Assembly (NCBI GenBank): GCA_016928835.1
Contig: JAFGJW010000006.1
Location: forward strand, 180,191 to 244,190
Direction of reading: 5' to 3'
Source of the DNA: Candidatus Woesearchaeota archaeon
GTDB lineage: Archaea > Nanobdellota > Nanobdellia > Woesearchaeales > GW2011-AR15
DNA: 64,000 bases
This document shows positions 9,545 through 34,571 of the stretch, in pieces. The notes beneath the pieces were generated by a model, which saw only the letters and a program-made list of their open reading frames with translations, searched no databases and was not told the DNA's origin. The number at the start of each line of letters is the position of its first letter. The first letter of the stretch is position 1. The position numbers and the translations under genes were made by a program.

Positions 9545-10561
9545 CTAAAAGGATATTTCTTTGTGCACCTTGTCAGAGTATCCTTTTAGCCCAAACACAA
9601 GGTCAAATTTCTTGCCGAATTCCAGGGCAAGTGCTGCTCTAATGAGACCAACAGGAGAGAAGAATCTATCTCCATAAAGGCACTTCTTTTCCTTGTCCTT
9701 GTGGTATTCTTCGTATTTCTCAAGCTCATTGTGATACTTATTAAGTATCGTTCTTAATTCTGCTATTGATCTAATATTTATTTTTCTAACCTCTTTGCTA
9801 AGACGGAAAAAACTTCTCTCCTCCTTTTTGTCCCACTCAGCCCCATACCAAGGAAAATATGTTTTTGAAAATTTAAAGAGGTTAAGGGCAGTTATTGTTT
9901 CTATATCCTTTATCTTTTTGCTAATAAGTTGTGAGAAGCCTGTCTGTATTTCTTCAAAAGTTGAATCAGCTACCTCAAACATTCCTGCAAGCGAGAACAT
10001 CTTCCTCAGCAACTCCTGGTCTTTCTCTTCTTTTGTTGTTTTATAGTTAAGGTAATGCTCAATCTCTGCCCATGCTTCCTGAAGCAAGGTCCTTATCTGG
10101 ATTTCGCATATAAAATCTTCTAGACCAGAAAATTCAATAAACATTGCCCTGTTCTTTGGCATCTTCACGAGCATGTGGAGAGAGAGGTAACCAAATTGGT
10201 CAAATTTTTTTGCAGTCTTTTTATTAGTCACTTCTATTACTTCAAACTCCTGTTCAATAATTCTCTTAAGTTGCTCAACCTGAGATAGGAAGAGACAAAT
10301 AATTCTACATCCAGCAATATCTGTACATTCTTTGAAAGGGTCTTTATAGCGTTTTCTCTCAATCTTTTCGAGAAAGCTTTGATAATCTTTTAGTCTCTGT
10401 GTTATCGAGTGGAGCTTAATTTCATGTTTTTCTATTGCAGCAGTTAAAATTATGTAAACAAGATGCAACAGTCTTTCGTATTTGGGTTTTCTCAAGTCAT
10501 AGAGCCTTCTTAACTCAATAGTATCTATGATTACCTCACCAATACTTGTCTTCTCTTCCAT
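9545..10561 (-). CDS. RelA/SpoT-domain protein (small alarmone synthetase-like) with a roughly 150-aa C-terminal extension
   Basis: Canonical synthetase motifs occur in the right order: QRLKDYQSFLEKIERK (R.K...S...K type), DIAGCRIIC, FGYLSLHMLV and EIQIRTLLQEAWAEIEHYLNYK. Confidence 0.8.
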   Translation of the reverse strand: MEEKTSIGEVIIDTIELRRLYDLRKPKYERLLHLVYIILTAAIEKHEIKLHSITQRLKDYQSFLEKIERKRYKDPFKECTDIAGCRIICLFLSQVEQLKRIIEQEFEVIEVTNKKTAKKFDQFGYLSLHMLVKMPKNRAMFIEFSGLEDFICEIQIRTLLQEAWAEIEHYLNYKTTKEEKDQELLRKMFSLAGMFEVADSTFEEIQTGFSQLISKKIKDIETITALNLFKFSKTYFPWYGAEWDKKEERSFFRLSKEVRKINIRSIAELRTILNKYHNELEKYEEYHKDKEKKCLYGDRFFSPVGLIRAALALEFGKKFDLVFGLKGYSDKVHKEISF

Positions 10562-24912: not shown

Positions 24913-25422
24913 ATGACATATGGCCCGATAGGTATTCAAACCACAGGACACGAAAGATATGACAGACCGAGAGACCATGCATTAGAACAGTATGCCAGAA
25001 GCGAGGGACTTCACGTGGAGCAATTATACCACGATGCACGAGTCCAACAACCCAGTAGAAATCTTGGAGAGCTTATTAACACTTTTAATACCTATATATC
25101 TAACCTAGGTATTGGCACTAGAAGATTGCCTACAAGAATTGACAGGGCATTATATAGTATTAACCCATTTGTTAGAGGAGAAGAAGATATTGGACAGGAA
25201 GGACAACTTGTTCCAGTCGGTGTTAGTGCATCTCCTGCAATACACGGGCCCAGAGACGTATATGATTTGAATATTTATAATGCATCTGGAAGGACAGGAA
25301 CAAGAGGTAGAGAGCCTAGATTAAGAGGACCGAAACAACCTGGAGGAAGGTCAGACAGAGGTAAACAGAGCAGAAATGGGAACAAAGGTCCTCGCAAAAA
25401 AAGGAGACCTCATGAGCAATAG
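24913..25422 (+). CDS. Orphan Arg/Gly/Pro/Gln-rich protein with atypical composition
   Basis: The ATG is preceded by GGTGA. Two hand-counted 60-nt lines gave 48-53% GC. The tail is GRTGTRGREPRLRGPKQPGGRSDRGKQSRNGNKGPRKKRRPHEQ. No family was recognised. Confidence 0.4.
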   Translation: MTYGPIGIQTTGHERYDRPRDHALEQYARSEGLHVEQLYHDARVQQPSRNLGELINTFNTYISNLGIGTRRLPTRIDRALYSINPFVRGEEDIGQEGQLVPVGVSASPAIHGPRDVYDLNIYNASGRTGTRGREPRLRGPKQPGGRSDRGKQSRNGNKGPRKKRRPHEQ

Positions 25423-25571: not shown

Positions 25572-25783
25572 CGCTGTTTATCACAAATACTGGGAATGGA
25601 TTTGCGTTAACAGAACGGACTCCAAGACTAAGGGTATTATATAAGACAAGGCCAGAAGGGACTGAAGAGGTAAGTCAACATATTCTAAGAAGTCTACGAA
25701 GAGCATAATAATAGAAAAATAATTGTCCTTTCCAAAACAATTATAAACTCTTTTTTATTTAATTAATAAAAAAGGTGATTCTA

Positions 25784-26032
25784 ATGGCAGAACAAGAAGT
25801 CAGCAAAGATGAGCAAGTAGGCTTTCATAAGGGTTCTTTATCAACATTGGCCAAGGAAAGGCAAGAGCTTTTAAAAATGGTCAATATAGTAGAGCAGTTG
25901 ATGCAGATGCACGTAAAAGCATTACAGGAACTAGGAGTTGATTTGCAGAAGATGGCGGAAGAGGCAGAGAAGCAGCAGGGAGAGAAAAAGCCTATAGAAG
26001 ATATAATTAAGAAAGAGAAAAAGAAAGAATAA
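25784..26032 (+). CDS. Small coiled-coil protein
   Basis: GGTGAttctaATG, a Shine-Dalgarno element plus ATG at 25784. The protein is an 82-aa helical Glu/Lys/Gln-rich sequence directly abutting the next gene. Confidence 0.5.
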   Translation: MAEQEVSKDEQVGFHKGSLSTLAKERQELLKMVNIVEQLMQMHVKALQELGVDLQKMAEEAEKQQGEKKPIEDIIKKEKKKE

Positions 26033-26419
26033 ATGTTTACTTTTTCTATTTATGGCCACAAAAATATTCTGGGAACTCATCAAAAAACTATAGAATTTAC
26101 TAAGGATTCTGAAGTAAGCAGGAAAGGCGACTGCATTGTGGGAGTTAGAGCTGAGTATAGCCTTACGGAATTAAAGGATTATTTAAGAAATTGTAATGAG
26201 ATTAGTGTCATAATAGAAGCTGATAATTTAAAAGAAGAGATTATCTGCTATTATAATAAAGTATTTAATGATTTGCATGAAATTGTTGTTAGAAAGAGTG
26301 ACTTTATCTCGAGGAGGACTCTCGGAACAAATGCTAACAAGGCTGCTATAGATATTAGCAGGAGGCTTATAGACTACCTAAAAAATCCGAAAAATAAGGC
26401 CAAGGTCACGATAAGATGA
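26033..26419 (+). CDS. DUF371-like conserved archaeal protein
   Basis: IYGHKNILGTHQKTIEFTKDSEVSRKGDCIVGV matches my recollection of the DUF371 signature (GH.N..a.H..T.E.T.d...t..GDCI.gV). Confidence 0.65.
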   Translation: MFTFSIYGHKNILGTHQKTIEFTKDSEVSRKGDCIVGVRAEYSLTELKDYLRNCNEISVIIEADNLKEEIICYYNKVFNDLHEIVVRKSDFISRRTLGTNANKAAIDISRRLIDYLKNPKNKAKVTIR

Positions 26420-26868
26420 GGAAAATACTTCAGAAAAGCGAAAAAAAAGAATTAAATGAAAGGATACTTGGAGAGTATAGACTCGAGTTCATAGACAAGA
26501 AAGACAAGGTGGAGCTCATTGATGATGTTTATTTTAAAAATGATGAGCCTGTTTTTTTTATTCAGAATAACAAATTAATACCAACTCTAAAATTGATTTT
26601 GAAAAACAATTTTTTAAAGAATATCACAGTAGACATGGGTGCAGTGAAGTTTGTTGTGAACGGCGCAGATATTATGAGACCAGGTATTGTTCAGATGGAT
26701 GAAGATATTGAAGAAGGCGAAGTTATCTGCGTGATAGACACCACTCATTCAAAACCATTGGCAATAGGAATTGCCTTGTTTTCTGGCAGAGATATGCAGA
26801 AGATGAGTTCTGGAAAAGCTGTGAAGAATATGCATTGGGTGGGAGATAAAATCTGGATTTCCCATTGA
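26416..26868 (+). CDS. PUA-domain RNA-binding protein (MCT-1/Tma20-like)
   Basis: VDMGAVKFVVNGADIMRPGIV...GEVICVID...KPLAIGIALFS is a PUA-domain pattern. The start overlaps the upstream gene by 4 nt. Confidence 0.7.
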   Translation: MRKILQKSEKKELNERILGEYRLEFIDKKDKVELIDDVYFKNDEPVFFIQNNKLIPTLKLILKNNFLKNITVDMGAVKFVVNGADIMRPGIVQMDEDIEEGEVICVIDTTHSKPLAIGIALFSGRDMQKMSSGKAVKNMHWVGDKIWISH

Positions 26869-26924
26869 AAAGTAACTACAACCAAGATAATTTTTTATAT
26901 TAATTCTCTTTCAAACACCTAAAA

Positions 26925-28634
26925 ATGGAAGCGAGGGAAGATTTTTTTTCATGGCCAGACCTATATTCCTGTTTTGATGAATTTCCTGTTTACGAAAGCA
27001 TAATAGGGGAATGCCGGGACTTGGAAAGGCATTTGAATGATCTTGTTAAACAATACTGGGAAGATAAATCCAAAAAATCTCAGGTTCTTAATGATTTAGT
27101 TGAGATATATTTTAGGCATTTTGAGCATCTCAGGACAGAGCCAAATTATCTCACTCGAGAGAATTTATCAAAGCTTCTGAGAGCAGTAATAGAAGAATAC
27201 GGCACATCTTCTCGAGACGTCTCTTTGCCAGAATCAGGAGAGCATGACGGTAATCTGAGAATTTATTCTGTCGTGCATCCATTAGTAGTTGCTTTCTATA
27301 GTAGCGGGTCGTGGGTAGCACAGTCCTCAAAATGTTTGGAAAATGCTTTAGTCGCAGGATTATTGCATGATATTCCAGAAGACAGACTCAAGAGACACAG
27401 GGAATCTCATAGATTTTCATTTCAATCGCTTGAATGGATTGTAGAAGATGTTCTGGACATAGTTGAGGACAATATGGGCGAGGAAATGGGTGAGAGCAGA
27501 AGAGCAACAATTGCATCACTAAAAGAATCACTGATAGATTTGTCCCGAGTTTCAAAGGAAGAATATGACCACCACATAACAAGACTTTTTTTTGATAAAA
27601 GGTTGTCTTTTTTTTGGATTGATGAGCTGGAGTTTGGACCGATAAGTGTGCCATCTCCTTTGAGGATATTAAGGATACCAAAAAGAAGAGCTTGGCTTTT
27701 CGGCGAAAGAGCAGTAGATGAACTGGAGAGTTCTGGATTTGGCAGATTGCTTTCTCCATTCATTCGGTATTCTCTTAATCCAGAGAGCGTACTTATCCCA
27801 AATCTAATGGTCAAGTTAGGTGACCGGTTGCATAATGTGCTTTCAATGGGCGTTTTAGACTCAAATGAATTAAATGGGGCTGCAAACAATACCAGAGGCT
27901 TTGGCTATGGGAAGAGAATGGAGGTTATACTAAAAAACATGTACTTAATTGATGCCACTGCTAATTTTTTCAATTATTTAATGCTGCAAAATGAGGGCTT
28001 GCTTCCTATCAGATATGGCGGACCATTTAAATTATTTTGTCACTTGCATCATGCCACTCTGGGAGCAATAACAGAGATGATAGACTCTGTATGTGCTAGT
28101 TATTCAGAAGAAAGTGAAGAAAGAAGAGAATTTGAGCTGATTGACACAGCTCTAACAGAATATAAACAGGCAGGAGGATTGGCCAAGGCAACCCGTGGTA
28201 AAAGAGAGTTTGATTGGTATTTAAGGAATTGGACATCAAGAGCAGGAGTTGTGGAAAGGAGAAGAGGGCCCGGCCCTGTTGATCCTGAAATCTTTGACGG
28301 CACAATAGAAGCAATAAGAGCCAAGGTAGATAAACTGTTCAGAGGAGAGCTGTATGGTGGGTTGAATGAACCAGATAAGCTATACAAACTATATACGCAT
28401 TTAATTGCCATGAGGGAGTGCCTAATAGGTTATTTTGGCGATTATACGGAATCACCATTAGTTGCTGAAAAAAGATTAATAAAATTCAGGCACATAGAGG
28501 GGTTTGCAGACCTCCCCGCACCACACCTAATTAGAGAAACATTGGAACCAAGGTATGGAATAGTACGGACTTTTAGGAGAGAGGGCCTACTTGCTGCATT
28601 AAGATATGCAATGCCAAAAAGGCGTGCAGCCTAA
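26925..28634 (+). CDS. Large HD-domain protein with a RelA/SpoT-hydrolase (HD_4)-like signature
   Basis: The motif order is as in Rel/SpoT hydrolase domains: VVHPLVVAF (H118), AGLLHDIPED (H148, D149) and VKLGDRLHNVLSMG (D300). The HD-to-D spacing of 151 aa is much longer than canonical. About 250 further residues are unassigned. The gene is GC-richer and Arg-rich. Confidence 0.6.
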   Translation: MEAREDFFSWPDLYSCFDEFPVYESIIGECRDLERHLNDLVKQYWEDKSKKSQVLNDLVEIYFRHFEHLRTEPNYLTRENLSKLLRAVIEEYGTSSRDVSLPESGEHDGNLRIYSVVHPLVVAFYSSGSWVAQSSKCLENALVAGLLHDIPEDRLKRHRESHRFSFQSLEWIVEDVLDIVEDNMGEEMGESRRATIASLKESLIDLSRVSKEEYDHHITRLFFDKRLSFFWIDELEFGPISVPSPLRILRIPKRRAWLFGERAVDELESSGFGRLLSPFIRYSLNPESVLIPNLMVKLGDRLHNVLSMGVLDSNELNGAANNTRGFGYGKRMEVILKNMYLIDATANFFNYLMLQNEGLLPIRYGGPFKLFCHLHHATLGAITEMIDSVCASYSEESEERREFELIDTALTEYKQAGGLAKATRGKREFDWYLRNWTSRAGVVERRRGPGPVDPEIFDGTIEAIRAKVDKLFRGELYGGLNEPDKLYKLYTHLIAMRECLIGYFGDYTESPLVAEKRLIKFRHIEGFADLPAPHLIRETLEPRYGIVRTFRREGLLAALRYAMPKRRAA

Positions 28635-28801
28635 ACCAAATAGTTTAATCGTTAATAAACTTAACATTTAAATATAATGAAAACCTACCATACAAAATGC
28701 AAGAAAGGCACATTACTTTGTTACTGCATTACCTTATTTAGATTCAACACTATTTTCTCGCCTTCTGTTTACGTGCATCATATGAAGGCAGAGAGAGCTA
28801 T

Positions 28802-30931
28802 GTGAAGAAAATGGAAAAGGAGAGATGTTTTTGGGAGAGAGCAACTAATTTGGAAGAAAGATTAGTATCAATTAGAGAGGAAAGTGATATGGCTGCCATG
28901 CAATTATGTGATGGAAAACCTACACTGGAAGAGATTCAAGTAGTTAAAGGATTACAAATGGAACAGATATTAGATTCTGAAATTCTAGATTTTTATGAGA
29001 AATTATACTTTATTCAAAATATTTGTTCCGAGGAAAATTGGGAAGTGCAGGTTAAATCATTATTGGATAGATTGTCTCCAGGCGAATTAATTTTTGAATT
29101 AATGAAATTAGATGTTGTTCGTGTCGGAAGAGAAATGCATAGAGACTTAGATTTTAGTATAGCATTCAATGACCCTAGGTTTAAACTATATGAGGTCTAC
29201 CTCTTAGGAGACCTATCTAATTCAGTTTTTTGGCAGAAGGTTAATCACCTTGCTGAAGAAACAATGATGCAACGATATCAGGAAGGCCTAGCTCAATTCA
29301 ATTTTCTTCTACGCAATCTTCACCAAAGAACAGTCCCTATCCTGGTTGGAAAACCGCTTGTTGCAGCTGTTACAAGAGACGAATTGGACTATGTTGCTGC
29401 AGTAACTGATCTGATGCATTCCAATCGAACAAAATCCGGCTTTGATCGGTTTGATAAAAGATTAAAAGAGCAACTACATGAAGCACGAAGCGCCATTATT
29501 GCCGAATCCCAAAGCAAAAGCAAAACAAGAATTCCGCAATATCTCATGAAACTTAGAGAAAGAACTGTTACTGCACTTGTATTAGATTTTCCGGGCAACA
29601 CCGGAAAAGGGGAGATGGAAAGAGAAAGACCAATTTATGTTGCAGCAAGGGCAAAGACTTTACGCAGCGCCAGAGCCAAATGGGCTATTGCAGCATTAAC
29701 CTTTCTTGGTTTTTATTCTCCTGGAAGATATGATGTCTTATTAAGACAAATGCCTTATGTTGCTAAGACAATTCTTGAGGAATCATTAAAAAAGACAACT
29801 AGTGTTAGATTCCAACATGAACAAGCCTTACTAAGATTTAAAGGAGAATATGAGAAGTATAAAGGACTTGGAACATGGGATGCATTAAGAAAAGAAGGCT
29901 CTGATTTAAGCATAGCACATTTGACAGCCTTATGGAATATATTACCACAAAGCCTACGTTCAAGGATAATAGAGAGGATCAATCGAAGCTCAGAATTGCT
30001 TCCAAAAGAAGTATTAGAATCTGTTGGAAAATGGAACATAAAACAGGACCTTATTAATGTCGTCAATGATTGGTTCGGTATTACATTCATATATAACCAG
30101 AGAGGACAACAATTGGTCCACGCTTCTGACAAATTAATTGCATCATTTCTCGATAACCCGATAATTGCCTTTAATAGAGGTATCGAAGCAGAATTAATCG
30201 AGAAAGCAACAGGATATTCTGCAACTCATTTCCAATTACAAGTAAGAGGGAGTCCAAGAACATCATTTGGTGTAGATGCACATGTGATGGATTCTGAAAA
30301 ATTTGCTGGACAATTCTGCTTTGGAAGTTATGCTCATTATTTATATCACACTCAAAGAAGAGCGAGGATTTTAGAATGGGTTGGTGAGGAAGATTATCTA
30401 AATCAGTTTGAGGAAAGGTTAGGTTTACAAACAGCTGAAAAAGGTTTGATAGTATGTTTAAAAAGGATTTTTCCTGAATACCAGGAGATGATTAGAAGAT
30501 TATATCATAAAGGAGAAAGAGGATATGGTGGGAGACCACGAACAGAAGATGAAGATGATGCAAGTGTTTTAGAACGGATATTTGGAGGCAAGCACCCACC
30601 TGACTGGTTCCCCCCGTCAAAATTTAGGAGAGGTGAAATAATCGAGTCCTTGAGTCCCGGATCACCATCAAGATATTTTTTTATTGGCTACACTCCAACA
30701 GCAGACGGAGCAGGAGCTATGTATGGATTAACACCACTCCAGTTTAATACAGATGGTTCAATAAAACAGGAGATTATTTACGTAGATCCTGCCAAAGTTG
30801 AAGACCCCGCAAGATATAGAAGAGTAAGAAATACAAGTATTAATGGAGCCAATTTTTACGAACTGCCACCCGCATCAGTGGGCAACCGTTGTCCAGAACT
30901 GTTACGGTATTGTGATAAAACAAAGACTTGA
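28802..30931 (+). CDS. Large protein with a diverged RelA/SpoT-synthetase-like (nucleotidyltransferase) core
   Basis: GTG at 28802 (ATG at 28811 is also possible). Motifs are ARAKTLRSARAKW (R.K...S...K), NDWFGITFIY (compare DxxGxRxx), ATGYSATHFQLQV (compare GYxSxH) and VDAHVMD...YAHYLYH in place of EIQIRT...EH..YK. The gene is GC-richer. Confidence 0.45.
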   Translation: MKKMEKERCFWERATNLEERLVSIREESDMAAMQLCDGKPTLEEIQVVKGLQMEQILDSEILDFYEKLYFIQNICSEENWEVQVKSLLDRLSPGELIFELMKLDVVRVGREMHRDLDFSIAFNDPRFKLYEVYLLGDLSNSVFWQKVNHLAEETMMQRYQEGLAQFNFLLRNLHQRTVPILVGKPLVAAVTRDELDYVAAVTDLMHSNRTKSGFDRFDKRLKEQLHEARSAIIAESQSKSKTRIPQYLMKLRERTVTALVLDFPGNTGKGEMERERPIYVAARAKTLRSARAKWAIAALTFLGFYSPGRYDVLLRQMPYVAKTILEESLKKTTSVRFQHEQALLRFKGEYEKYKGLGTWDALRKEGSDLSIAHLTALWNILPQSLRSRIIERINRSSELLPKEVLESVGKWNIKQDLINVVNDWFGITFIYNQRGQQLVHASDKLIASFLDNPIIAFNRGIEAELIEKATGYSATHFQLQVRGSPRTSFGVDAHVMDSEKFAGQFCFGSYAHYLYHTQRRARILEWVGEEDYLNQFEERLGLQTAEKGLIVCLKRIFPEYQEMIRRLYHKGERGYGGRPRTEDEDDASVLERIFGGKHPPDWFPPSKFRRGEIIESLSPGSPSRYFFIGYTPTADGAGAMYGLTPLQFNTDGSIKQEIIYVDPAKVEDPARYRRVRNTSINGANFYELPPASVGNRCPELLRYCDKTKT

Positions 30932-30951: not shown

Positions 30952-31407
30952 CTAAATTCTCCTCTCTTTTGGCACATAATTCAGCAATTTCCCTCTTACT
31001 AGTTTGCCGCATCCCAATATGTCTTCTTCATATTTAATTATTGCAAAACCTTCAAGCTCAGAGTCTATTTCAAAGTCTTGGCCAGACATCCACTGTTTCG
31101 CCTGTTTCTTATTTAAATTAAGGATATTTTTATCAGCTGTTTCTGCAACAAACTGGGCCCCTTCTACACTTAGTCTTAGCTCTCTGTTTTTTATCTCTCC
31201 AAAATAAAGACCTAGGCTGTTTATTCTCAGTTTTCTGAAATCCAATCTATCAACATCCCTATTAATAATAAAGAGTTTGTTTTTTGGATTTGCAAAGACA
31301 ACATAATCTGTCAAATCAAAATCAGAGCCCCATTGTTTTTTAATTAAACCATTTATTTGTTTAATTCTTTTCTTATCCAGGATTGTCAGTCTACTCATTT
31401 TAAACAA
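30952..31407 (-). CDS. NIP7-like pre-PUA/PUA domain protein
   Basis: The architecture and the C-terminus FAIIKYEEDILGCGKLVRGKLLNYVPKERR are typical of archaeal NIP7/UPF0113 homologues. Confidence 0.6.
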   Translation of the reverse strand: MFKMSRLTILDKKRIKQINGLIKKQWGSDFDLTDYVVFANPKNKLFIINRDVDRLDFRKLRINSLGLYFGEIKNRELRLSVEGAQFVAETADKNILNLNKKQAKQWMSGQDFEIDSELEGFAIIKYEEDILGCGKLVRGKLLNYVPKERRI

Positions 31408-31431
31408 AGATTTAAAAATATATATAACTAT

Positions 31432-32034
31432 ATGAAAGCTATGAGAAAGATACTTTCTATTTTAATGTTTCTCATATGCTCTAGCACTATTTTTGCTTCA
31501 AATATAGAGCAAGCCACTATTAAGATAAGTGTTATTAATGAAGTTCCGCAGATTATTGATGTTTCCTTATCACCTTCAGAAGCCTATACAGATTCTATTT
31601 TAAACTGTAGTGTAAAAATCAAGGATGAGTTTCCTCAGGATGCGGTAGTTCATTTTAGATGGTATAAAAATAATATATTACTGTCTCAATCTGACAACTC
31701 CCTTAGAGGTTTTAGTGAAGGAGATAATATTAAATGTGTTGCCGTACCTGAAGACAGCGCACATCAGTTCGGAGAACCTCAAGAGGCAATTGTTGTGATT
31801 CAAAAAACTCCAATGAAAGCACAATTGTTTATGCCAGTAATAAGTCTCCTTGGAAGTGAGACAAGTACTGAAAAAATCATGAGTCAGAATCCAATGCAGT
31901 TAGTAACAGGAATGGTTGTCGGTGCAAATACGGGCAGCCAGAGTCTTGTTCTCATGCTATTGATTTTTATTTTAATAATTGTAAATATTAATTTACTGGC
32001 CAGATTATGGCCTAAGAAAGAAAGAATTGTGTAA
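31432..32034 (+). CDS. Secreted, C-terminally anchored surface protein
   Basis: ATG at 31432. Signal peptide MKAMRKILSILMFLICSSTIFA, a beta-rich middle region, and a C-terminal TM helix LVLMLLIFILIIVNINLL. Confidence 0.5.
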   Translation: MKAMRKILSILMFLICSSTIFASNIEQATIKISVINEVPQIIDVSLSPSEAYTDSILNCSVKIKDEFPQDAVVHFRWYKNNILLSQSDNSLRGFSEGDNIKCVAVPEDSAHQFGEPQEAIVVIQKTPMKAQLFMPVISLLGSETSTEKIMSQNPMQLVTGMVVGANTGSQSLVLMLLIFILIIVNINLLARLWPKKERIV

Positions 32035-32038
32035 CTAT

Positions 32039-33796
32039 TTAAATCCCCCAAACAGGATTTATGGTACGCATTATTTCTGCTATTTCTTTAAGGACTTCTA
32101 TCTCGCCTTGCGTCAAATATTTGGTTAGTTTTTTTATTCTCCTAAAATGCTCCTCTGGGATTATACTATACAAAATATCCCCTTCATCAACTTGTCTCCC
32201 TACACAGCATCCTTCCAGCGCAATTGCAACCTGCTTTCCCTTTGTAACACTCTGCAGGTTCTCTTTTTCTTCTTGTATACTTTTTACTGTAGCTATTGTT
32301 CTTCCTTCTTTCATCACATGTGTCCCAACTTTTATCTTGCCTTCAATAATATCCATCCCCACAATGGCAGGATTGCTCTGCCTGAAAACATAATTTGGTA
32401 TTATCTGCATTTTGCAGGGCCTAATCAATTTGTCCAATTGTCTAGCCTCAATTAGTTTCTGCTGCTGCTCTTTCCATTGCTCATATTCCTCAATTATCTT
32501 GTATATAATATCATGTGTTATTATCTTAACTCTTTCTGAGCTTGACACATCCTGCTCTCTCTCAACATTAAAGCCTAGAATAACCGCCTGGATGGGATCC
32601 TTCTCATAATTTGCCTCAGCATCTGAGATGTCCTTTTTTGTGATTCTGCCTATTGTAGCTCTTCTAACTTTTATGTCTTTTTCTTTCAAGAGGAAGGTTA
32701 ACGCTTCTAGACTGCCAAGAGTGTCTGCTTTAATAATAATACCTGTTTTTTCTGTCTTGATTATTACCTCTTCAACCTCTTTTTGGATCTTTGTTTCTAT
32801 TTCCTCCTGATTATTAGAATTGAAGCTTTGAAGTGGCATGCCCGGAATCACATCATCAATGTCTGAGGCAGATATTTTTACACCTGTAGCAGCAGTAGCT
32901 TTCCCAACAGGGTTGAATTTTGATTTTTTATCACGGATTTCTGCCAAGGGTACTGGCTCGAACATCGCCCTTACCTTTGTGACAACTGGTTTTTCTATAC
33001 CTCCTATAATAATATTATCACCTGTCTGAAGCATGCCGTCATAAATAATCACATCAAGTGTTGTTCCCAGACCAATGGTCTCTTTGACTTCAAGCACAGT
33101 GCCTTTAGCTTCTCCTAGAGTTTGTATCTTGAGGTTATGTTCAAGATACTTCTGGGCCAGGCCTGAAAGCACCATTAAGAGCTCTGGAATCCCGTCGCCT
33201 GTTCTTGCTGATGTCGGCACAATTGCAATTTGCTTAGTATACTCCTCAATCCTGTCAAATCGCTCGCTCTGCATACCGTATTCTGAAAGCTTTCCCATGA
33301 TAACATAGAGCTTATTATTGATCTCTTCCTGTGTATATGGGTCCTGCTTTGAGATATTTTTCAGCAGTCTCTTGTCTTCTAACCTGTACCCAGGTACAAG
33401 GTCAATTTTGTTAGCTGCCAAAACAAAAGGGGTTTTATATTTTTTTAGGATCTCAACTGCCTCTATTGTCTGCGGCTTGAATCCTTCATTGATATCAACG
33501 ACCAGAATAGCAATATCTGCAATATTTCCGCCTCTTTTTCTCAAATTAGAAAATGCTGCATGACCCGGTGTATCAATGAATAGCAGTCCTGGAATAGTGA
33601 ATTTCATCTTATCAGAAATCAAACCTGAGCATATCTCTCTTATTGTCCTAATTGGGATTATGGATGCTCCAATTGCCTGGGTGATGCCCCCTGCCTCTCC
33701 CTGTTGAATAGCCGTACCCCTAATCTTGTCCAATATTTTGGTTTTTCCATGATCAACATGACCAATTACGACCACTATGGGCTGTCTTAATTCCAT
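32039..33796 (-). CDS. infB: Translation initiation factor aIF5B (IF-2 family GTPase)
   Basis: G1 motif VVVIGHVDHGKTKILDKIRGT, G3 motif FIDTPGHAAF and G4 motif ANKID. The length of 585 aa is typical of aIF5B. Confidence 0.9.
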   Translation of the reverse strand: MELRQPIVVVIGHVDHGKTKILDKIRGTAIQQGEAGGITQAIGASIIPIRTIREICSGLISDKMKFTIPGLLFIDTPGHAAFSNLRKRGGNIADIAILVVDINEGFKPQTIEAVEILKKYKTPFVLAANKIDLVPGYRLEDKRLLKNISKQDPYTQEEINNKLYVIMGKLSEYGMQSERFDRIEEYTKQIAIVPTSARTGDGIPELLMVLSGLAQKYLEHNLKIQTLGEAKGTVLEVKETIGLGTTLDVIIYDGMLQTGDNIIIGGIEKPVVTKVRAMFEPVPLAEIRDKKSKFNPVGKATAATGVKISASDIDDVIPGMPLQSFNSNNQEEIETKIQKEVEEVIIKTEKTGIIIKADTLGSLEALTFLLKEKDIKVRRATIGRITKKDISDAEANYEKDPIQAVILGFNVEREQDVSSSERVKIITHDIIYKIIEEYEQWKEQQQKLIEARQLDKLIRPCKMQIIPNYVFRQSNPAIVGMDIIEGKIKVGTHVMKEGRTIATVKSIQEEKENLQSVTKGKQVAIALEGCCVGRQVDEGDILYSIIPEEHFRRIKKLTKYLTQGEIEVLKEIAEIMRTINPVWGI

Positions 33797-33821
33797 AAGT
33801 CTTGGAAATAGAAAACTGTTT

Positions 33822-34571
33822 TTAAAAGTTATCCTTCATTTTTTCATAAACATAATCTGCTATCTGCTTCAGATTTATCACATCTTCCTCATTGTACTCC
33901 ACCAGTAGTTTTAGATAATGCTCCTCTCCAGAGCCTTTAAACATCCTCCATAAAAGGTAAGGGTCTCCACCATAAAGCCTCTCCACTATCGGATTCTGTC
34001 TTTTTATCCCTAATGATCTTTCTACTTCTTTCAAACCGCCTGTCAAACCAAGCTTTATGCAGGCGTGCTTCAAGTCAAAATGGGGTATATTTGGCAACAG
34101 AGCCTGATATCTTTTCCTAATAAACGGAATGTCAAAAGAGCTTCCATTAAAAGTAACAATAAGCCTATAATTCTTTAATTCCTTTTTCAATTTATTAAGG
34201 TCAAGATTAATGTCCCTAACCATTATTTTTGTTTCCATCCCATCATATAAACCAAACACAGTAATGAAAGAACTCATGCTAACACCAGATGTTTCTATAT
34301 CAAGAAAGACAGATTGGTCTTCGAAAAAATCATATAAACGCCATACCTCTGCCGTCGGCAGTATCTTAGTGAAATAAGAGGAATTACCATTAAACAATTC
34401 AGTTCTTGCTTCTTTGATTTTTCTATTATAATACGATTTGGCTTTGTTAGAAATGCCTTTGATTTTTTCTTGTTCAAGAAAGTCCTGCCAGTCGTTTATT
34501 CCTTGCTTCCTTATGTTAGCCTCTTGCTTGGGCCCAATTCTATCAAGAAAGATAAAACTTCTTCTAATCAT
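33822..34571 (-). CDS. RNase H-like (YprB-type) predicted exonuclease
   Basis: FLDIETSGVS...IVTFNGSSFDIPFIRKRY is the DEDD-like pattern of the RNase_H_2/YprB family. Confidence 0.6.
   Translation of the reverse strand: MIRRSFIFLDRIGPKQEANIRKQGINDWQDFLEQEKIKGISNKAKSYYNRKIKEARTELFNGNSSYFTKILPTAEVWRLYDFFEDQSVFLDIETSGVSMSSFITVFGLYDGMETKIMVRDINLDLNKLKKELKNYRLIVTFNGSSFDIPFIRKRYQALLPNIPHFDLKHACIKLGLTGGLKEVERSLGIKRQNPIVERLYGGDPYLLWRMFKGSGEEHYLKLLVEYNEEDVINLKQIADYVYEKMKDNF

Follow-up and report, generated by a model that had tools for sequence, protein, structure and literature searches.

Enzymes of the RelA/SpoT (RSH) family, which synthesise and degrade the alarmone ppGpp, are the core of bacterial starvation signalling. 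In a 64,000-nucleotide (nt) stretch of the genome of a Candidatus Woesearchaeota archaeon (contig JAFGJW010000006.1 of assembly GCA_016928835.1, forward-strand positions 180,191 to 244,190; hereafter "the window," whose first letter is position 1), we found two adjacent plus-strand genes, here called P1 and P2, that are best explained as a lineage-specific, vertically inherited RSH pair of eraser and writer, tied by position to the translation apparatus, a reading toward which we lean without holding it firmly. P1 occupies positions 26925-28634 and encodes 569 amino acids (aa). P2 occupies 28802-30931 and encodes 709 aa when counted from GTG 28802; the public gene call begins at ATG 28811 and gives 706 aa. 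The two genes encode separate polypeptides in different reading frames, with a spacer of 167-176 nt. An original prediction, made from the sequence alone, had described these co-oriented open reading frames (ORFs), at the same coordinates, as a GC-rich island encoding an RSH-hydrolase-like protein followed by an RSH-synthetase-like one. Both likenesses were borne out, as was the large size of the proteins, each about three times that of a typical small alarmone hydrolase (SAH) or small alarmone synthetase (SAS) and with big unassigned regions; the island was not.

The evidence that P1 is an RSH-type HD hydrolase is solid at the level of sequence. Its catalytic core (27270..27836, plus strand) comprises HP (H118), LLHDIPED (H148, D149, E152, D153), and KLGDRLHN (K297, D300, N304), located as had been quoted in VVHPLV (residues 116-121), LLHDIPEDR (146-154), and KLGDRLHN (297-304), with ~140 residues inserted between HDxxED and KxxDRxHN. 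In a 7-member family alignment (22-33% identity), H118, H148-D149, E152, and K297/D300/N304 are invariant, and the invariant columns are the RSH hydrolase signature HP / HDxxED / KxxDRxHN, in order. P1 as a single sequence stays below the curated Pfam and NCBIfam thresholds, scoring 18.6 bits against a cut-off of 22 for HD (E 0.0024), 12.1 bits against 27.2 for HD_4 (PF13328; E 0.17), and 19.2 bits against 499 for TIGR00691 spoT_relA (E 3e-4, on the KLGDRLHN stretch), and the other members of its family have no Pfam match. Similarity to SpoT is nevertheless evident at the profile level. The only matches of the P1-family profile among PDB sequences were 7QPS and 7QPR (E 7e-4, aligned across the HD motifs), deposited as "ACT domain protein," which we take to be the SpoT of A. 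baumannii. In hhalign comparisons, the P1 family matched residues 1-200 of E. coli SpoT with 93.6% probability (P 2.1e-7, score 56; the maximum score of 80 column or block shuffles was 22) and full-length SpoT with P 1.5e-6, and it did not match RelA, whose HD domain is degenerate. The same family profile detected counterparts in related loci, which we refer to by L numbers: L003 (20 bits, ~320 residues), L006 (13 bits), and L027 (40 bits). The all-helical C-terminal half of P1 (~325-569) is conserved, yet over its ~240 residues it resembles no RSH domain when compared by hhalign with full-length RelA and SpoT (P >= 0.07). A TGS/ACT-like region in the C terminus of P1 or P2 was considered and dropped, with no Pfam match and hhalign P >= 0.07.

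P2 consists of an N-terminal helical region (~1-255), a RelA_SpoT-like core (~275-520) of the nucleotidyl/pyrophosphotransferase kind that is split by an insert, and a C-terminal extension (~600-709), which is unique to this genome and missing in homologues. The synthetase motifs, which had been described as recognisable but altered, lie where they had been quoted. Motif 1 (29648..29680, plus strand; RAKTLRSARAK, 283-293) reads R283-x-K285-x3-S289-x3-K293 and leaves the canonical RxKxxxSxxxK unchanged; in canonical RSH synthetases, this motif is the ATP-phosphate-binding helix. A helical insert of ~115 residues (~309-421; 29726..30064, plus strand) separates it from motif 2 and is found in all members of the P2 family; canonical SAS and Rel proteins lack it. 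Motifs 2 to 5 (30065..30361, plus strand) were placed by motif-to-motif alignment and by the invariant residues of the family. In motif 2 (NDWFGIT, 422-428, containing D423), the Arg of canonical DxxGxR is replaced by Thr (Thr or Ser in the family), while motif 3 (GYSATH, 471-476) retains the Tyr (Y472) and His (H476) of GYxSxH. Motif 4 (VDAHVMD, 491-497, containing D492 and H494) corresponds to ExQxRT, with Gln replaced by His family-wide, Arg by Met, Thr, or Leu, and Glu by Asp in P2 only; motif 5 (AHYLYHTQRR, 511-520, containing H512) is a remodelled WxExxHxxYK. The five blocks are collinear with the canonical order and coincide with the invariant columns of the P2 family, in which R283, K285, K293, D423, H476, H494, and H512 do not vary; S289 and G426 are present in P2.

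We compared the P2 family by hhalign with an alignment of 10 canonical RelA_SpoT domains (a canonical SAS encoded elsewhere in the window, the slot protein of L005, E. coli RelA and SpoT, and six plasmid SAS proteins). The match was motif to motif, with P 0.0077 for the full alignment and 0.0027 for the C-terminal core, and deleting the insert improved it to P 3.2e-4 and a probability of 39%. The N-terminal block of P2 alone also landed on the canonical RxKxxxSxxxK, and none of 80 column or block shuffles per construct reached the P2 score. An AlphaFold2 (AF2) model of residues 255-605, built on a 6-sequence alignment (pLDDT 61, pTM 0.52), has the order strand, helix (motif 1), helical insert (helices 55-169 of the model), strand (motif 2), helix, four strands (motifs 3 and 4), and helix. 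When this model was compared by Foldseek with 350,542 PDB chains, the top six matches were RelP/SAS2 (6FGJ, 6EWZ), RelQ/SAS1 (5DEC), and RelSeq (1VJ7), with E 5.5e-3 to 0.16, probabilities up to 0.9, and TM-scores of ~0.3, followed by polymerase-beta and MenT nucleotidyltransferases. In the viral library BFVD, the top match was a phage RelA/SpoT protein (E 0.03). The structural check that the original prediction had proposed for P2 thus gave a divided answer, as RelP, RelQ, and Rel ranked first but never with E <= 0.001.

Homologues from related loci bridge P2 and the canonical enzymes. The protein L004_S340 matched the P2 family with P 3e-4 to 1.5e-3 and canonical SAS with P 0.018, its LEIQLMG aligning straight onto VDAHVMD of P2. 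The place of P2 is taken in L005 by a protein, oriented like P2 with respect to the PUA genes on either side, whose RelA_SpoT domain is beyond doubt (PF04607 E 2.3e-16, hhalign P 2.6e-11). The corresponding protein of L006 reaches PF04607 with E 0.011, and L006_S395 (P 8e-4), L003_S470 (P 0.04), and an 838-aa protein of L024 (P 0.035; GGEIQGRTDQSQWVAEIGPRKHKQVYK) each align, weakly, on the appropriate canonical motif. The N- and C-terminal regions of P2 showed no similarity to full-length RelA or SpoT in hhalign comparisons. We rejected the idea that the N terminus of P2 is a degenerate, RelA-like HD domain, as hhalign gave P >= 0.15 with SpoT, with RelA, and with the P1 family, and the 340-aa protein P0013, a candidate "minimal" P2, proved to be a contig-end fragment.

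An RSH-synthetase origin of P2 is likely, because motifs, hhalign, AF2/Foldseek, and bridging homologues agree, although none is decisive alone; the several lines converge on what had been predicted, each of them weak by itself. By fold, too, P2 would probably belong with the RSH synthetases. Several results weigh against this, and with it against our reading of the pair. P2 and five relatives had no match in Pfam or NCBIfam, no member of the family reached a profile threshold, and the family profile found nothing at E <= 10 among PDB sequences. The hhalign probability does not exceed 39%, the Foldseek matches combine E > 0.001 with low TM-scores (0.3), the AF2 model was built on just six sequences, and the canonical Gln and Arg of ExQxRT and the Arg of DxxGxR are replaced, with Asp in place of the catalytic Glu in P2; these replacements make a lost or changed activity conceivable. 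The same results, with the polymerase-beta and MenT nucleotidyltransferases ranked close behind the RSH proteins, would also suit a P2 that is another nucleotidyltransferase-fold protein or a non-enzymatic one, with motifs that are convergent or due to chance, and a P1 that is a stand-alone HD phosphohydrolase acting on another substrate, as MESH1 does on NADPH. For the latter, there is a precedent, since RSH hydrolases can have non-alarmone substrates, MESH1 being an example cited in 10.1101/2021.04.30.441581. We consider this explanation improbable, given that the five motifs stand in canonical order and are the invariant columns of the family, that the shuffle controls were never reached, that the one AF2 model had RelA/SpoT proteins as its top matches in each of two separate structure libraries, that L004_S340 bridges to canonical SAS and the L005 counterpart is a clear RelA_SpoT protein, and that the constant partner of P2 is an RSH-type hydrolase.

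The genomic setting of the pair is conserved. As predicted, PUA genes lie on both sides: a PUA/DUF1947 gene at 26416-26868 (PF01472 E 1e-21), itself preceded by a DUF371 gene, upstream of P1, and a pre-PUA/PUA gene at 30952-31407 (PF13636 E 6e-14), in convergent orientation, downstream of P2. Farther neighbours include aIF5B, NurA/HerA, a topoisomerase, CarS, and other archaeal housekeeping genes; there are no tRNA genes in the window. We used aIF5B as an anchor in one-genome-per-species contigs to find related loci. The closest genomes by aIF5B (70% identity) are metagenome-assembled genomes (MAGs) of Woesearchaeota (DPANN), and the order conserved in the Woesearchaeota relatives is aIF5B, ORF, PUA, a slot, PUA, DUF371, and a small ORF. 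The full cluster reads RIO1, small ORF, DUF371, PUA (Tma20/eIF2D-like), HD gene, synthetase gene, PUA (Nip7/RsmF-like), and, farther on, aIF5B.

At least 10 related contigs carry an HD gene followed by a synthetase gene in this slot, in which still other relatives have a synthetase-like gene at least; the slot was seen in L003, L004, L006, L008, L024-L029, L038, and L040-L043, on contigs from independent samples in Logan, ENA, JGI, and NCBI. Every relative on a readable contig sits in this slot, P1-like genes directly after the PUA/DUF371 genes with RIO1 upstream and P2-like genes directly before the convergent PUA gene. In L003, an HD-motif protein of 484 aa is followed by a synthetase-motif protein of 470 aa, and L006 has a pair of the same kind (516 and 395 aa), as does L004, where the HD protein is cut by the contig end. 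L008 has a synthetase-motif protein of 416 aa, with the contig stopping ~250 nt past it. The slot of L005 holds its RelA_SpoT protein and no other, that of L002 an unrelated 344-aa protein, and L007 lacks the slot altogether. Since the same syntenic slot is occupied across relatives, the pair is vertically inherited.

Relatives of P1 and P2 came to light only by exhaustive searching. HMMER against 1.84 billion representative proteins returned six cluster representatives for P1 (best E 1e-54, 38% identity) and five for P2 (best E 4e-31). When P1, P2, and the alignment of the P2 family were used as queries in word-indexed searches, nothing beyond the window's own proteins came back, and the apparent ORFan status of P1 and P2 was therefore an index artefact. 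Pairwise BLAST or phmmer comparisons of P1 and P2 with the slot proteins of L003, L005, and L006 were not significant alone, and only profiles connect them. A combination of synteny, exhaustive HMMER, and profile-profile comparison thereby recovered a family that word-indexed searches missed entirely. No match among the 1.84 billion proteins spans both halves of a combined P1+P2 query, so no fused version is known. A scan of a genome collection (185,579 species) with P2 found nothing, nor did metagenome scans seeded by P1 plus P0003 or by a subset of the P2 family, and no bacterial homologue was present among the 1.84 billion representatives or in the 185,579-species scan.

P1 and P2 diverge much more rapidly than the genes around them. 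Where aIF5B is 66-71% identical (the closer loci), the small upstream ORF is 71-84% identical and the PUA and DUF371 genes are 44-60% identical, while identity is 22-34% or undetectable for P1 and 25-26% or undetectable for P2. Catalytic positions are kept despite this rapid divergence, and the alignments indicate that the active sites are under purifying selection. Partners may change even between close relatives. In L024 (9667-12371), a P1-like gene (P0003, the closest homologue of P1) is followed by a 63-aa ORF and then by the 838-aa protein, which has a near-canonical synthetase motif and is not matched by the P2-family profile; even the closest lineages thus differ in their synthetase, by divergence or by replacement. 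The slot synthetases of L005 (13165-14367) and L006 (12213-13400) carry N-terminal CxxC...CxxC zinc-ribbon-like motifs that P2 lacks, which suggests that the non-catalytic parts of the slot proteins are freely swapped between lineages. The lone 344-aa protein of L002 (12829-13863, minus strand in the locus; aIF5B 70% identical) has no detectable similarity to P1, P2, RSH domains, or Pfam families; a GS...E-V-type stretch in it, VGSDARYENWASRVEVVLL, recalls nucleotidyltransferase motifs. The small upstream ORF (25775-26032, plus strand, 85 aa) is 66-84% identical over all related loci and always lies just upstream of DUF371-PUA. It has no significant Pfam match, is more conserved than aIF5B in the closer relatives, and by its sequence conservation appears to be a strongly constrained protein of the translation cluster.

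Vertical inheritance and synteny in relatives overturn the framing of the pair as a foreign island. The original prediction had itself named an ordinary vertically inherited pair of known function as the outcome that would speak against it; the descent is vertical, but the function is not a known one. Base composition points the same way. Over the 68 genes of the window, mean gene GC is 0.358 (standard deviation [SD] 0.029), against which P1 has 0.402 (+1.5 SD) and P2 0.376 (+0.6 SD); several other 1-kb windows equal or exceed the GC of the pair (e.g., 0.403 at 33001-34000), and the adjacent gene for which 28% GC had been given (31357-32034) measures 32.9%. GC at third codon positions (GC3) is 0.333 in P1, equal to the window mean (0.333), and 0.266 in P2, below it, so the small GC excess sits in codon positions 1 and 2, because the proteins are rich in Arg, Glu, and Leu and poor in Lys, Ile, and Asn. 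This amino acid bias, also predicted, is genuine: the summed fraction of Lys, Ile, and Asn (K+I+N) is 0.135 in P1 and 0.151 in P2, the lowest in the window (mean 0.246, SD 0.042), and R/(R+K) is 0.67 and 0.58 against a window mean of 0.35. Tetranucleotide distances over 25-31 kb (2-kb windows) are ordinary (z 0.3-0.95), contrary to what an island would lead one to expect. Synonymous codon usage is ordinary in P1 (rank 16/68) and the most deviant of the 68 genes in P2 (chi2/df 1.92), in an AT3-rich direction. The GC3 of P2 is the lowest among the long genes of the window, opposite to the claimed GC-richness, and its codon usage may point to low expression. Composition at synonymous sites and in tetranucleotides is host-like, and only the amino acid content of the pair is unusual. 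An ORF of 169 aa (24913-25422, plus strand), between HerA and the conserved small ORF, resembles P1 and P2 in composition (R/(R+K) 0.82, K+I+N 0.142, GC 0.429) and has no Pfam match.

A recently acquired GC-rich island of bacterial origin, as first proposed, is thus effectively refuted. The slightly high gene GC, the atypical amino acid composition, and the attribution of DPANN RelA/SpoT genes to transfer from Bacteria (PMC8407392) speak for it, but the GC3 values and tetranucleotide distances, the occupation of the same slot in related contigs, and the lack of any bacterial homologue in the searches described above stand against it.

Each gene of the pair has a promoter-like element of its own. 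A TATA-like box, TTTTATAT (26893..26900, plus strand), was read from the sequence ~30 nt upstream of the P1 ATG; its promoter role is assigned from archaeal promoter geometry, and its spacing to the ATG would imply a leaderless or near-leaderless P1 mRNA. Just past the P1 stop, alignments of the spacers revealed a second box, TTTAAATATAA (28667..28677, plus strand), kept between P1 and P2 in the window, L038, L024, and L042 and, with one mismatch, in L027. TTTAAATATAA occurs three times in the window against 0.4 expected and is a putative separate promoter of P2. The spacer (28635-28820, compared with L038 5847-6000, L024 9678-9854, L027 7831-8000, and L042 4858-5000) is more conserved in DNA than the flanking proteins, which are 25-34% identical, and it may be a new cis-regulatory leader of the synthetase gene.

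The P2 5' leader (28695..28820, plus strand) is predicted by folding to be structured. It contains a 5' purine block (28697-28710), a pyrimidine tract (28750-28765), and a purine-rich Shine-Dalgarno-like block (28784-28798), all on the plus strand. The last of these pairs with the pyrimidine tract in a stem that in the window extends over both candidate start codons, GTG 28802 and ATG 28811, and the 5' purine block could compete for the same tract. The window leader folds with a minimum free energy of -32.5 kcal/mol (z -2.97; 0/200 shuffles as good). RNAalifold on five loci recovered the same 9-bp helix, weakly (-5.06 kcal/mol, with double changes at 4 pairs). Folded singly, the leaders of L024, L027, and L042 make this helix, and that of L038 instead pairs its 5' purine block with the tract. 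No Rfam family matched the spacer or leader at the gathering threshold or at E <= 1. Through this hairpin, the leader probably gates translation of the synthetase. We also weighed a 42-aa ORF in the spacer (28677-28805) as a conserved small gene and think it unlikely: its N terminus is like that of an ORF in L038 and unlike those in L027 or L024, and its start codon falls within the TATA box, ahead of the point where transcription should begin.

The combination of a fast rate with a synthetase that its leader may control also suits a different explanation, in which the genes are a toxin-antitoxin or anti-virus module of the toxSAS/SAH type (type IV) with a fixed place in the chromosome, P2 arresting growth, by making (pp)pApp or pyrophosphorylating tRNA CCA ends, and P1 neutralising it. 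Such an arrangement is known from ATfaRel (a PbcSpo-type SAH) and FaRel (a toxSAS) of Cellulomonas marina, where a separate hydrolase gene lies directly upstream of a co-oriented synthetase gene (10.1101/575399) and the hydrolase is presumed to reverse the product of the synthetase; the same gene order recurs in all our related loci. SAH enzymes can undo tRNA pyrophosphorylation (10.1101/2021.04.30.441581). Evolution much faster than that of all neighbours is typical of conflict genes, the content of the slot varies (HD plus synthetase, synthetase alone in L005, the unrelated protein of L002, the 838-aa synthetase-like protein of L024), the hydrolase would be constitutive and the synthetase tightly controlled by its leader, and a defence-type SAS is encoded in the same window.

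We nonetheless regard a toxin-antitoxin or anti-virus module as less likely. All recovered contigs, from relatives with aIF5B only 55-70% identical, have the pair at one position among housekeeping genes of translation; the window has neither integrase nor transposase nor phage genes closer than 10 kb to it, composition is host-like, PADLOC gave zero matches for P1 and P2, and PHROG gave a single one for the pair, borderline, to a family of unknown function. Both proteins exceed toxSAS or SAH size about threefold, and the ~170-nt spacer, with a predicted promoter of its own in this subfamily, does not make a tight operon. The analogy with toxSAS/SAH systems drawn in the original prediction therefore survives in gene order and fails in the mobile-module character. 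ATfaRel and FaRel are bacterial, small (domains of ~200 aa), patchy in distribution, and found by RSH HMMs, whereas P1 and P2 are 2.5-3.5 times larger, contain unassigned domains, and are fixed in an archaeal translation-gene cluster with one predicted promoter per gene; the P2 core further differs by its 115-residue insert and altered acceptor motifs, and the sequences are probably too diverged for assignment to any toxSAS subfamily (FaRel, FaRel2, PhRel, PhRel2, or CapRel).

The rapid divergence could also be read as decay, P1 and P2 being pseudo-enzymes left over from a former RSH system under relaxed constraint in a reduced DPANN genome. The Asp in place of the catalytic Glu and the lost Gln and Arg of P2, its AT3-rich synonymous codons, which would fit low expression, and the loss or replacement of the pair in L002, L005, and L007 are in line with this. 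We judge it very unlikely, as long intact ORFs (430-840 aa) are kept in all lineages, in both families the residues that never vary are precisely those of catalysis, promoter and leader are kept at the DNA level, and reduced genomes tend to delete useless DNA rather than retain 4 kb of it.

According to the reading we favour, P1 and P2 would be very fast-evolving descendants, in one Woesearchaeota lineage, of RSH hydrolase and RSH synthetase genes; here we infer enzymatic activity, substrate, a link to translation, and regulation of the pair by the leader. P2 would act as the writer, moving pyrophosphate from ATP to the 3'-OH of an acceptor, with the metal-binding acids D423 and D492, the basic helix (R283, K285, K293), and the acceptor loop (Y472, H476) as its retained parts. 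Its acceptor pocket would have been remodelled family-wide, from ExQxRT to ExHx[T/M] and from DxxGxR to DxxGxT, and the ~115-residue insert added. Owing to the replaced Gln and Arg, the motif-2 Thr, and the large insert, the substrate or product of P2 may differ from classical (p)ppGpp; the product might be (p)ppApp-like, or a pyrophosphorylated RNA or tRNA 3' end. P1 would be the eraser, its intact Mn2+-type HD site (H118, H148, D149, E152, D153, D300, N304) removing the pyrophosphate. The separate TATA-like promoters of P1 and P2 and a conserved ~110-nt P2 leader that can occlude the ribosome-binding region suggest that the hydrolase is made constitutively, and that production of the synthetase is blocked in the absence of a signal.

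A more specific version holds that the genes are a split Rel by aIF5B, an endogenous and vertical archaeal counterpart of the stringent response that pyrophosphorylates a target other than GDP/GTP (a tRNA 3' end or an adenine nucleotide) and so throttles translation, with P1 erasing the mark and the leader gating its synthesis; we offer this tentatively and think it rather unlikely. Beyond the points raised for P2, several others count against a writer/eraser pair tied to translation. The tie to translation is one of gene neighbourhood, and the rapid evolution of the pair could equally mark a conflict system. AF2 on the single sequence of P1 gave an unusable model (pLDDT 40.6). The leader helix has little covariation support, with weak z-scores in the other loci. 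Furthermore, an examination of Haloferax and Sulfolobus for (p)ppGpp was negative (PMC8646023).

Compared with known RSH proteins, the pair recalls the N-terminal half of long RSH enzymes (Rel/SpoT; RelSeq 1VJ7, 7QPR) in its HD-then-SYNTH order and in the opposing activities that would be expected, with P1 aligning to the SpoT hydrolase motifs and the P2 model matching 1VJ7. It differs from them in consisting of two polypeptides encoded in different frames ~170 nt apart, and in the TGS, helical, ZFD, and ACT domains, which are undetectable in P1 and P2 (Pfam; hhalign against RelA and SpoT, P >= 0.07). With RelQ/SAS1 (5DEC) and RelP/SAS2 (6FGJ, 6EWZ), the best structural matches to its core model, P2 shares RxKxxxSxxxK, the Asp of DxxG, the Tyr/His loop, and an acidic residue on the following strand. 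Unlike these enzymes, it has the insert between the first helix and the second strand, ExHx[T/M] (DxHxM in P2) and DxxGxT in its family, and ~255 extra N-terminal and ~190 extra C-terminal residues, and PF04607 is blind to it. P1 shares the complete hydrolase signature HP, HDxxED, and KxxDRxHN with Mesh1, PbcSpo, and PaSpo (~180-200 aa), from which it is set apart by its 569 aa, its ~140-residue insert, its conserved 240-residue helical C-terminal half, and a score under the Pfam HD_4 threshold.

Canonical SAS genes of DPANN archaea and Woesearchaeota belong to the same superfamily and occur in the same organisms, and in L005 one of them stands in the slot of P2; they are recognised by Pfam (E 1e-16 to 1e-24) and counted in surveys, to which the P1 and P2 families are invisible. 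The window itself encodes such a protein at 9545-10561 (minus strand), a true RelA_SpoT protein (PF04607 E 8.8e-24) that brings the RSH-family genes in the window to three, as had been predicted. It is an SAS with a C-terminal extension of ~160 residues, matches the PADLOC phage-defence candidate PDC-S33 (E 1.1e-19, residues 31-285), and has Bacillus and Bacteroides RelA/SpoT-domain proteins as its nearest plasmid relatives. This gene is probably of a defence or toxSAS-like kind and independent of P1 and P2.

Archaea have been reported to lack long RSHs and to possess only sporadic SAS and SAH genes attributed to horizontal gene transfer (Atkinson et al. 2011, PMC3153485). In a DPANN survey (PMC8407392), 41.7% of Woesearchaeota MAGs had annotated RelA/SpoT genes, to which a bacterial origin was assigned; the genes counted there are of the Pfam-detectable kind, like 9545-10561. 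We found no description of a divergent, split pair of the P1/P2 type in the open-access literature. Contrary to the picture of sporadic transfer, this Woesearchaeota lineage keeps a hydrolase and a synthetase together at one fixed place in a translation cluster, as a pair too diverged for domain databases and RSH surveys and yet with its catalytic residues preserved. Fission of a long RSH was raised as a possible origin by the authors of the ATfaRel/FaRel work (10.1101/575399). If P1 and P2 are active, the RSH superfamily would gain a new class of sequence and architecture, and the pair would be a natural example of a "split Rel," an arrangement discussed but unsupported for FaRel/ATfaRel, as well as a concrete, testable case in which DPANN archaea might signal by pyrophosphate on nucleotides or RNA. 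Should the tentative view of an endogenous split Rel prove true, this would be the first lineage-wide archaeal RSH signalling not derived from horizontal gene transfer, with a chemistry or targets unlike those of bacterial (p)ppGpp.

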